Sequence record: NC_010105.1
DNA length: 64,000 bases
Origin: Escherichia phage JS98
Reading direction: 5' to 3' (one strand)
Both the position numbers and the translations under genes were made by a program. Every line of letters begins with the position of its first letter. The first letter of the stretch is position 1. The notes beneath the pieces are model-generated. The model was not told the DNA's origin. It made no database searches and was given only the letters and a program-made list of their open reading frames with translations. This document shows positions 5,377 to 49,565 of the stretch, piece after piece.

Positions 5377-5384
5377 TATTTATA
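5377..5384 (-). promoter_or_regulatory. late promoter TATAAATA (IPIII-like gene)
   Basis: Exact motif on minus strand immediately downstream of terminator hairpin. Confidence 0.55.
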
Positions 5385-5390
5385 CAAAAA

Positions 5391-5412
5391 GGCCCAACCT
5401 TTCGGAAGGGCC
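5391..5412 (-). terminator. rho-independent terminator (repeat copy 1)
   Basis: GGCCCAACCTTTCGGAAGGGCC; U-run on minus strand. Confidence 0.55.
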
Positions 5413-5417
5413 GTAAA

Positions 5418-5972
5418 TCAGTTCTTGTAGAACCGGAACGGGTTCACGTGGAAGGCCAACATAGCTTTAGGGATTTTACGAGACAAAAGACTCTTAAGCT
5501 TCCAGCCACAGTACACGCGAAGGTAAAATGTGATTCCGCCGACCTTAAGATAAGGAACTGAAGCAAATACACCCCAGGCGTCATCATTCCACATCCACAA
5601 CCAACCATGGTGAGCTTTATCAGGAGAACCTGATTCTACGTCAGGATTACCACGATAATGGAATTCCGAGCTACAATCACGGCCTAGTTTATGATAAGCA
5701 AAGTTATAAGCTTTATTTCGCCATAGCCAAGCTACTCTCTGGAGATAAACACCACCAGGCATTTTCCTGATTTTAGCCCAACGTTTAATATGACCTTTAT
5801 CGCCGTCAATTGGATTATCGTATGTCATCATCCAATCAAAACCGTATGGCAATTTACCAGTCTTTTTATTATGAAAAGGAACCACAAAAGGCGCAAGGAT
5901 AACGGCTAGAACCATAGAGATAAAATCTAGTGGGACCAACAGAATCCAACTCAAATATTTTAAAAGTTTCAT
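5418..5972 (-). CDS. membrane-anchored protein (184 aa), late-expressed, unknown function
   Basis: N-terminal hydrophobic helix LSWILLVPLDFISMVLAVILAPFVV; Trp-rich C-terminal domain; AGGAAA SD; TATAAATA late promoter upstream and identical hairpins on both flanks. Confidence 0.6.
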   Translation of the reverse strand: MKLLKYLSWILLVPLDFISMVLAVILAPFVVPFHNKKTGKLPYGFDWMMTYDNPIDGDKGHIKRWAKIRKMPGGVYLQRVAWLWRNKAYNFAYHKLGRDCSSEFHYRGNPDVESGSPDKAHHGWLWMWNDDAWGVFASVPYLKVGGITFYLRVYCGWKLKSLLSRKIPKAMLAFHVNPFRFYKN

Positions 5973-5998: not shown

Positions 5999-6006
5999 TA
6001 TTTATA
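5999..6006 (-). promoter_or_regulatory. late promoter TATAAATA (membrane protein gene 5418-5972)
   Basis: Exact motif on minus strand immediately downstream of terminator hairpin. Confidence 0.55.
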
Positions 6007-6013
6007 CAAAAAA

Positions 6014-6035
6014 GGCCCAACCTTTCGGAAGGGCC
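6014..6035 (-). terminator. rho-independent terminator (repeat copy 2)
   Basis: Identical 22-nt hairpin; U-run on minus strand. Confidence 0.55.
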
Positions 6036-6205
6036 TTTAACCTAGGGTAACCTTGTCGGGGTTCCACCTGCTAGGCAAGTGTTCTGTGCGCCGTTTCAGC
6101 TGTGAGATAAGGGACTTTAAGAGGAACTCATGTACTCCTTAAAGTCGGGTCTTATTCAGGGAACTTCAGTCCGACGACTTACCGGTAGCGACCCGGTTTC
6201 TTGTT

Positions 6206-6281
6206 TGGTCGAGACAGTAGGGATCGAACCTACGACCTACGGTTTAGAAGACCGTTGCTCTTCCTTCTGAGCTATGCCTCG
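6206..6281 (-). tRNA. tRNA-Arg (anticodon UCU)
   Basis: Cloverleaf readable: acceptor CGAGGCA/TGTCTCG, anticodon stem ACGGT/ACCGT with loop CTTCTAA, T-arm GGTTCGATCC, 3' CCA encoded. Confidence 0.75.
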
Positions 6282-6285
6282 TATT

Positions 6286-6360
6286 TGGCGGACATGCATG
6301 GATTCGAACCATGGACCAATTGATTAACAGTCAACTGCTCTACCGCTGAGCTACACATCC
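6286..6360 (-). tRNA. tRNA-Asn (anticodon GUU)
   Basis: 5' GGATGTGTAGCTCAGCGGTAGAGC..., anticodon loop CTGTTAA, T-arm GGTTCGAATCC, 3' CCA encoded. Confidence 0.75.
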
Positions 6361-6364
6361 AAAT

Positions 6365-6438
6365 TGGTGGCCCTGGGTGGAATCGAACCACCATCCAGCG
6401 ATTATGAGTCGCTCGCTTGACCGTCCAGCTACAGGGCC
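6365..6438 (-). tRNA. tRNA with CAU anticodon (Met, or Ile if lysidine-modified)
   Basis: Acceptor GGCCCTG/CAGGGCC, anticodon stem AGCGA/TCGCT with loop CTCATAA, T-arm GGTTCGATTCC, 3' CCA encoded. Confidence 0.75.
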
Positions 6439-6710: not shown

Positions 6711-6839
6711 AAACACCTCAAATAAAATTAAGTAAAGTAAGTTTGATTAATAGACCTTGTCTATTATGAAAGGCTCTTTGAGGGAAGAACCTTTGGTAAT
6801 AGAGGGTATTAATGATAGAGTAATAATATCACATAATTC

Positions 6840-7316
6840 TTAAAGCATATCAAGTGCTTTCACATCAGGGATTTTAATTTCTTCTTCAATAATATACAGC
6901 TTAACGTAAGAAATTACACGGATGAAATCACCATCATATTCACAAGCCATACCAAGGAGCTCAGTAAGGGCTTCATTCAAGTAGTATTCTTCTTCGTCAT
7001 CGTTCAGCAAGGCTTCTAAGTCTTGGATACCGAGGACTTTATCTAAAAATTCAGGAGTCAATTGGCCTGATTTTACACCAGATTCAATGTGGGCAATAAC
7101 CAGATGCTTAACTACGTCCCATTCCGAATTACCACATTTATCCGGGTTGTTGCAATGAGAACCATGGAAAAGTTCTAGGATATATTTGTACTGTTGGATT
7201 TCATGTTCTTCTACGCCAAATACAGTCTGGGTTTTATAGTTATCGCCATCATTTTCCCAGGTTTCAATTTCAATTGCATAACCTTTAGGGATAATTTGTC
7301 CGAATTTAATATTCAT
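6840..7316 (-). CDS. hypothetical protein (about 158 aa)
   Basis: ORF track start 7325 is GTG; ATG 7316 overlaps upstream stop (ATGA coupling). Confidence 0.55.
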   Translation of the reverse strand: MNIKFGQIIPKGYAIEIETWENDGDNYKTQTVFGVEEHEIQQYKYILELFHGSHCNNPDKCGNSEWDVVKHLVIAHIESGVKSGQLTPEFLDKVLGIQDLEALLNDDEEEYYLNEALTELLGMACEYDGDFIRVISYVKLYIIEEEIKIPDVKALDML

Positions 7317-49543: not shown

Positions 49544-49565
49544 GGCCCAACCTTTCGGAAGGGCC
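49544..49565 (-). terminator. rho-independent terminator (repeat copy 3)
   Basis: Identical 22-nt hairpin after the uvsY operon; U-run on minus strand. Confidence 0.55.

Follow-up and report, generated by a model that had tools for sequence, protein, structure and literature searches.

The 165 bp between tRNA-Arg and the terminator hairpin in the tRNA cluster of Escherichia phage JS98 (NC_010105.1) very probably hold two minus-strand elements: an orthologue of T4 rnaD at positions 6084-6205 and, at 6039-6083, a 45-nt trailer that leads directly into an intrinsic terminator (6008-6038). All positions refer to the window, the whole stretch of 64,000 nucleotides that was analysed. Since rnaD is a small structured RNA of phage T4 that has been known for fifty years, it is here an expected gene rather than a new discovery, an unannotated copy in a known family. 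The initial annotation, which did not state the strand, had proposed a structured RNA comparable to T4 rnaC or rnaD for this interval. The rnaD part of the proposal stands on homology, on the site directly after tRNA-Arg and on a covariation-supported fold, while rnaC is absent. The annotation gap is thus closed: the 165 bp are the rnaD gene and a conserved trailer, not junk, a tRNA or an ORF.

On the relevant strand, the minus strand, the interval 6040-6205 is a transcript segment bounded by tRNA-Arg and the intrinsic terminator. Three minus-strand tRNA genes, tRNA-Met (6365-6438), tRNA-Asn (6286-6360) and tRNA-Arg(TCT) (6206-6281), were identified by both ARAGORN and the Rfam tRNA model (62-71 bits), in agreement with the tRNA-Arg reported at 6206 in the initial annotation. 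tRNA-Arg ends at 6206 with an encoded CCA, and rnaD begins at the very next base, 6205. A consensus scan picks out a sigma-70-like promoter match at 6825..6853 (-), with TTGATA, a 17-nt spacer and TG-GATATT, in the gap upstream of a 90-aa ORF and the tRNA cluster, where the transcript might have its start.

In a pairwise alignment, window positions 6209-6086 and T4 rnaD share 78% identity over 125 nt (E 2e-22). Over the matching DNA, the RB7 record annotates tRNA-Arg, rnaD ('species II RNA', 121 nt) and rnaC (139 nt), and the position of the window rnaD is that of the annotated rnaD in RB7. The RB3 record labels the same element 'rnaD: species II RNA', and the T4 GT7 annotation of the same stretch gives tRNA-Arg and rnaC. 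A blastn search with positions 6000-6210 (-) against 50,697 phage records matched 745 of them, essentially all from enterobacterial T4-like phages; phage Esco_phi_B-01 is identical to the query, and Dhakavirus VR5 is 88.7% identical. The covariance model R1, which was built in this analysis from the MAFFT alignment A1, gives the window rnaD 128 bits (E 3e-30) and has no other match in the 64 kb; a second model, R2, gives it 123.5 bits. Altogether, homology, position and covariance models identify 6084-6205 (-), an RNA of ~120 nt, as the Dhakavirus (JS10-like) orthologue of T4 rnaD, the species 2 stable RNA, and we consider this identity well supported and hold it with high confidence.

A search of Rfam 15 returned no match of note in 6040-6205, either at the gathering threshold or at E<=10; the sole overlap at E<=10 is a 10-bit tmRNA_permuted match that reaches in from tRNA-Arg. 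T4's own rnaD and rnaC likewise match no Rfam family. The RNA is unannotated in the two close-relative records examined, and an rnaD feature is present in just a few of the records listed.

That the interval is instead a tRNA gene in decay or of unusual type, or that annotation has overlooked a small ORF encoding a protein, seems to us exceedingly improbable. Such a gene would suit the location in a tRNA cluster and the acceptor-like end (..GCGCACCA) of rnaD in T4 and RB7, and in some GenBank records 'hypothetical protein' ORFs are placed across the homologous DNA, calls that we regard as spurious. However, the fold consists of a hairpin and one long stem with no cloverleaf, substitutions in the stems are compensatory, and the lengths of the homologues (117-124 nt) differ by non-multiples of three. 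The initial annotation had reported neither a canonical tRNA T-arm nor an ORF here, and both observations hold: ARAGORN made no call in 6040-6205, the Rfam tRNA model and the tRNA clan gave no match at E<=10, and the interval is touched only by mechanical ORFs of 21-46 aa, which run into the tRNA or the terminator, one of them antisense into tRNA-Arg. Its further suggestion of a degenerate or atypical tRNA finds no support from ARAGORN or Rfam.

The rnaD RNA begins with an 8-nt A-rich leader, which is followed by a hairpin (P1) and by a long irregular stem (P2-P5) that is closed by the 3' end of the RNA and carries a variable apical hairpin. The leader (6198..6205, AACAAGAA; here and below on the minus strand) is single-stranded and conserved in alignments A1 and A3 with the family consensus AAnAAGAA, and could conceivably act as an RNase E or Hfq site. 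P1 (6181..6197) has the stem ACCGG / CCGGU around the 7-nt loop GUCGCUA and is present in the MFE fold. The long stem is closed by P2, in which GUCGUCG (6172..6178) pairs with 6086-6093 (CGGCG-C-AC); the latter strand (6086..6093, ..CGGCGCAC) also contains the probable mature 3' end. P3 joins 6162-6165 to 6098-6101, and P4-P5 joins 6151-6158 to 6103-6111, with an internal-loop region within 6098..6165 in which GUUCCCUG and UCACAGC face each other and are invariant. The stem is capped by an apical hairpin, termed type B, in which 6137-6146 pairs with 6113-6122 (inverted repeat I1). Two pairing registers are possible around P3, and the variant in phage TH41 favours the other one.

This architecture is shared by the 24 unique homologues that we gathered from GenBank phages, IMG/VR and metagenomes, all of which fold into it, and it is recovered as the RNAalifold consensus. 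Their 5' 49 nt and 3' 22 nt are almost invariant, and the centre occurs in three unrelated versions. In the MAFFT alignment A1, 98.3% of the cells at paired positions are paired, compared with 28-50% when the partners are slid, and five pairs show compensatory changes; when the sequences with a type A apical hairpin are taken alone, four further apical pairs covary. In the cross-genus alignment A3 (36 sequences), whose pair counts are biased towards the covariance model to which it was aligned, 97.3% of the cells are paired and compensatory changes occur in 10 of the 22 pairs. These ten comprise four of the five P1 pairs, all four P5 pairs and a single pair each in P2 and P3. None of 500 shuffles reached the observed covariation score of A3. 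P1 is paired in 100% of its A3 cells, its compensatory changes lying across genera, and P2 is invariant among close relatives, its one G-C to C-G exchange being found in three divergent homologues. The window sequence fits every helix of the A3 fold. Because A3 was fitted to the model, the results of the independent MAFFT alignments A1 and A2, in which the covariation seen in A3 is also present, are the safer evidence. The covariation analysis across related phages that the initial annotation had suggested therefore does find a conserved structure.

The stems named in the initial annotation are not those of the conserved fold. The pair GAGGAACT...AGTTCCTC is no inverted repeat: AGTTCCTC occurs only at 6121-6128 (-), where it is made of the GAGGAACT bases of the plus strand. 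The second stem, AAGTCG / CGACTT (6142-6147 / 6175-6180), does exist but is not conserved, because in it an invariant core strand pairs with a version of the hairpin that only some relatives have. At the site of GAGGAACT, the real inverted repeat is GACTTTAAG / CTTAAAGTC at 6113-6121 / 6138-6146, within the apical hairpin. Folding energy gives weak z-scores: on the minus strand the value is -0.65 for the whole interval and -1.38 for the exact RNA, and the plus strand of the interval gives +0.26. Thermodynamic stability was therefore left out of the evidence. Folding energy alone is not beyond chance, whereas the homology across 745 phage records and the covariation are far beyond it.

Two other readings of the conserved loop were considered. 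A kink-turn formed by the GACUGA/GAAA internal loop was rejected, as its tandem G-A is lost in the homologues of phages Moon and Merlin. A likeness of GUUCCCUG...CAGCUGAAA to type I-F or I-E CRISPR repeats raises the idea of an RNA anti-CRISPR, but a 55-nt hairpin separates the two halves and there is no Cas6 hairpin.

At least three unrelated versions of the apical hairpin exist across the relatives. Among the phage records, type A was counted 425 times, type C ~148 times and type B, the version of the window, 30 times; further versions are found in Moon, Marfa and CIP9. The Dhakavirus JS10 has the apical hairpin exactly as in the window. At 6128-6142 (-) the type B hairpin contains AAGGAG followed after 3 nt by AUG and a 4-codon mini-ORF (M-S-S-S-stop), which is probably a coincidence, since the spacing between AAGGAG and AUG is too short for a normal start.

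Outside this hairpin, T4-like phages of enterobacteria from at least seven genera share a nearly invariant core of the RNA, comprising AAGUCGUCG, GUUCCCUG, UCACAGC and GGCGCA. Pattern scans of IMG/VR and of metagenomes gave close relatives only (13 and 12 loci, respectively), and the distant homologues were obtained only by covariance-model scans of tRNA regions fetched from other genera. These divergent homologues are found in the Gaprivervirus TH41, the Citrobacter Moonvirus phages Moon and Merlin, three Klebsiella Marfavirus phages (where P1 is enlarged by 48 nt), Enterobacter and Kosakonia phages of the genus Kanagawavirus, and one unclassified Klebsiella phage. The same scan found no match in the tRNA regions of Aeromonas phage 65.2 or Acinetobacter phage Acj9. 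Each divergent homologue begins 1-4 nt past the 3' end of a tRNA; the tRNA in question varies among the phages and is tRNA-Arg, -His, -Trp or -Asn.

Several side observations concern these loci. In several phages a small ORF lies between tRNA-Arg and rnaD (L034:150-401, L040:2600-2944, and loci L004 and L026). The TGA stop of this inserted ORF falls inside the rnaD leader (AATGAGAA), and T4 has the AATGAGAA leader without the ORF. Some phages have an additional 'mini-rnaD' of ~66 nt between the tRNA and rnaD (L035:339-404; also L010, L011 and L012), in which a short hairpin is followed by GCCGTCG ... CGGCGCACCA, so that its ends are rnaD-like and the long stem is lacking. In Klebsiella Marfavirus, a 'hypothetical protein' CDS (L043:366-593, L045:360-593) overlaps the rnaD-like element (335-478) and is either a spurious call or a real small gene that is overlapped. 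In the record of Citrobacter phage Moon (L038:2501-4123), the tRNA features and the ARAGORN calls lie on opposite strands, and no annotation is given for the tRNA-His (2765-2840) directly adjacent to the rnaD-like element.

An alternative is that the element acts in cis within the tRNA operon, the rnaD fold and trailer providing an RNase E entry site or a block to 3' exonucleases during tRNA maturation and the stable fragment being a by-product. We consider this rather unlikely. It would account for the finding that rnaD abuts a tRNA 3' end in every phage without an ORF inserted at that junction, for the A-rich, single-stranded nature of the leader and for the constant presence of the trailer between the last RNA and the terminator, and no trans target of rnaD is known (PMC3014915). 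However, the internal-loop sequences are invariant across genera, beyond the needs of a simple structural block, and an ORF does part the tRNA from rnaD in several phages. Merlin, Marfa and K65_evo4 have further tRNA genes after rnaD, so the element there lies within the cluster and not at its end. In addition, the Gelderlandvirus Salmonella phage CGG4-1 has a tRNA-Arg that is 92% identical but no credible rnaD match in the 5-kb stretch fetched around it.

No homologue of rnaC exists anywhere in the window: blastn gave only chance matches of <=19 nt, and in the pairwise alignment the T4 segment with rnaC is passed over. Relatives with and without rnaC differ by a clean indel of ~147 nt. Between the rnaD 3' end and the trailer there are 18 nt in phages without rnaC (the window and VR5), ~165 nt in those with rnaC and ~520 nt where an ORF is found instead. 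This last arrangement, with rnaC replaced by ~500 nt, was seen in L004:8118-8630 (minus-strand view), in L030 and in L033/L041 (phage TH41); the replacing segment encodes an ORF of ~125 aa with the end ..AFARG and a stop, directly after which the usual trailer follows.

The trailer itself (6039..6083, -; AACACTTGCCTAGCAGGTGGAACCCCGACAAGGTTACCCTAGGTT) is conserved, occurs once in the window, and reads AACACTTGCC...GGTT, its first 36 nt forming a block, AACACTTGCC(T)TAGCAGGTGGAACCCCGACAAGGT, that is nearly invariant in all relatives. Window positions 6083-6004 are 84% identical to the T4 segment that follows rnaC, and the trailer precedes the terminator whatever lies upstream, be it rnaC, rnaD or a protein ORF. 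Its predicted hairpins were considered as a structured element and rejected: they are invariant among the relatives, no covariation was seen there, and the two single changes observed both disrupt the predicted pairing. For these reasons we conclude that the trailer is conserved as sequence.

The terminator (6008..6038, -) folds into a GC-rich stem with a GAAA loop followed by a U run. Its hairpin at 6014-6035 (-), which the initial annotation had located correctly, is GGCCCTTCCGAAAGGTTGGGCC followed by a T run, and one C-G to G-C exchange is seen in it among relatives. This 22-mer occurs three times in the window, at 5391-5412, 6014-6035 and 49544-49565, always on the minus strand. Directly past the terminator, at 5999..6006 (-), is a TATAAATA box that corresponds to the T4 late-promoter consensus and that we take, from established T4 knowledge, to be a late promoter; it would serve the next gene (5418-5972), outside the RNA. 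The window contains 18 TATAAATA boxes compared with 7.7 expected. Those at 5377-5384 and 5999-6006 each lie within ~10 nt of a terminator copy and are followed by the next gene, and the first two terminator copies with their boxes therefore look like a repeated cassette of terminator plus late promoter.

A further reading is suggested by the E. coli 3'ETS-leuZ, an sRNA sponge that the glyW-cysT-leuZ tRNA operon yields when its 3' external spacer is cut. By analogy, the whole 3' external spacer of the phage cluster (rnaD, trailer and terminator), or the trailer and terminator alone, would be an Hfq-binding sponge or sRNA, which we regard as quite improbable. The site matches, in that the segment follows the last tRNA and leads to an intrinsic terminator with a U tail; near-invariance without covariation is what a sequence that pairs or binds protein is expected to show; and the leader consensus AAnAAGAA can be read as three A-R-N triplets, a putative Hfq motif. 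On the other hand, the stable species of T4 are RNAs of 120 and 139 nt, according to general knowledge and the GT7 and RB7 annotations, and in TH41-like phages the trailer also follows a protein-coding ORF, so it may just belong to the terminator and late-promoter module.

For the rnaD orthologue we propose, on the basis of its position, its A-rich leader and knowledge of T4, that the RNA would be co-transcribed with tRNA-Met, tRNA-Asn and tRNA-Arg and freed by the host nucleases of tRNA maturation. Its 5' end would arise from 3' processing of tRNA-Arg within the A-rich leader, and its 3' end from cleavage within the trailer or ahead of it, with subsequent trimming back to helix P2. The product would then accumulate as a discrete, stable species of ~120 nt of the kind known only from T4. 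As to function, the combination of an invariant loop and a hairpin exchanged across genera could fit an RNA with a conserved partner and a host-tuned module, a suggestion that we make tentatively. One possible, though doubtful, form of it is that rnaD acts in trans, the invariant loop binding a conserved host or phage factor and the swappable hairpin tuning the RNA to the host as a decoy or sponge, in an accessory rather than essential role. More specifically, and unlikely as it stands, rnaD might be a modular accessory of host range or counter-defence, with a scaffold that docks the conserved factor and a hairpin under diversifying selection that, as a decoy or sponge, would capture nucleases or RNA-binding proteins specific to the host. 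If true, the rnaC-less, type B copy of the Dhakaviruses would be a clean minimal system in which to study the 'species 2 RNA'.

The roles of T4 RNAC and RNAD, which originate from the tRNA region, have been stated as unknown (PMC3014915), and both have been detected as late RNAs, with a Northern blot using an RNAC probe (PMC9697503). A study of 2025 found one SNP inside rnaD that was common to all lines of a T4-like phage evolved on semi-permissive E. coli (PMC12685909). By position arithmetic this SNP probably falls in the apical domain; as a lead, it hints at a host-related role, and it may have pre-existed in the stock. The family model presented here reveals an invariant internal-loop core, a strict post-tRNA position wherever no ORF is inserted and a cassette-like exchange of the apical hairpin; hairpin swaps, core-loop mutants and the natural rnaC-less phages offer handles on the role of the T4 stable RNAs.

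Among known systems, 3'ETS-leuZ resembles the phage element in position alone, as a non-tRNA RNA that follows the last tRNA of its operon and precedes an intrinsic terminator. It has no sequence relationship to the window, rnaD is a far larger structured RNA, and the Hfq binding, RNase E release and sRNA pairing of 3'ETS-leuZ are hypothetical for rnaD and the trailer. T4 rnaC is another stable RNA of the same transcription unit, located in T4 between rnaD and the trailer, but it is set apart by a tRNA-like T-arm (GGTTCGAATCC) and by its weak match to the tRNA clan, both of which the window RNA lacks. Compared with rnaD of T4 and the RB phages, the window copy differs in its type B apical hairpin, which is unrelated to their type A, and in its encoded 3' end, ..GCGCACAG instead of the ..GCGCACCA of T4 and RB7, since after GGCGCA the window encodes CAG where T4 and RB7 encode CCA. 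It also runs straight into the trailer because rnaC is missing, whereas in T4 rnaC intervenes. In other respects it is like the rnaD of T4, RB7 and RB3: the sequence is homologous, the strand, the site right after tRNA-Arg and the fold are the same, the trailer and terminator follow downstream, and at 122 nt compared with 120-121 nt the RNAs belong to one length class.
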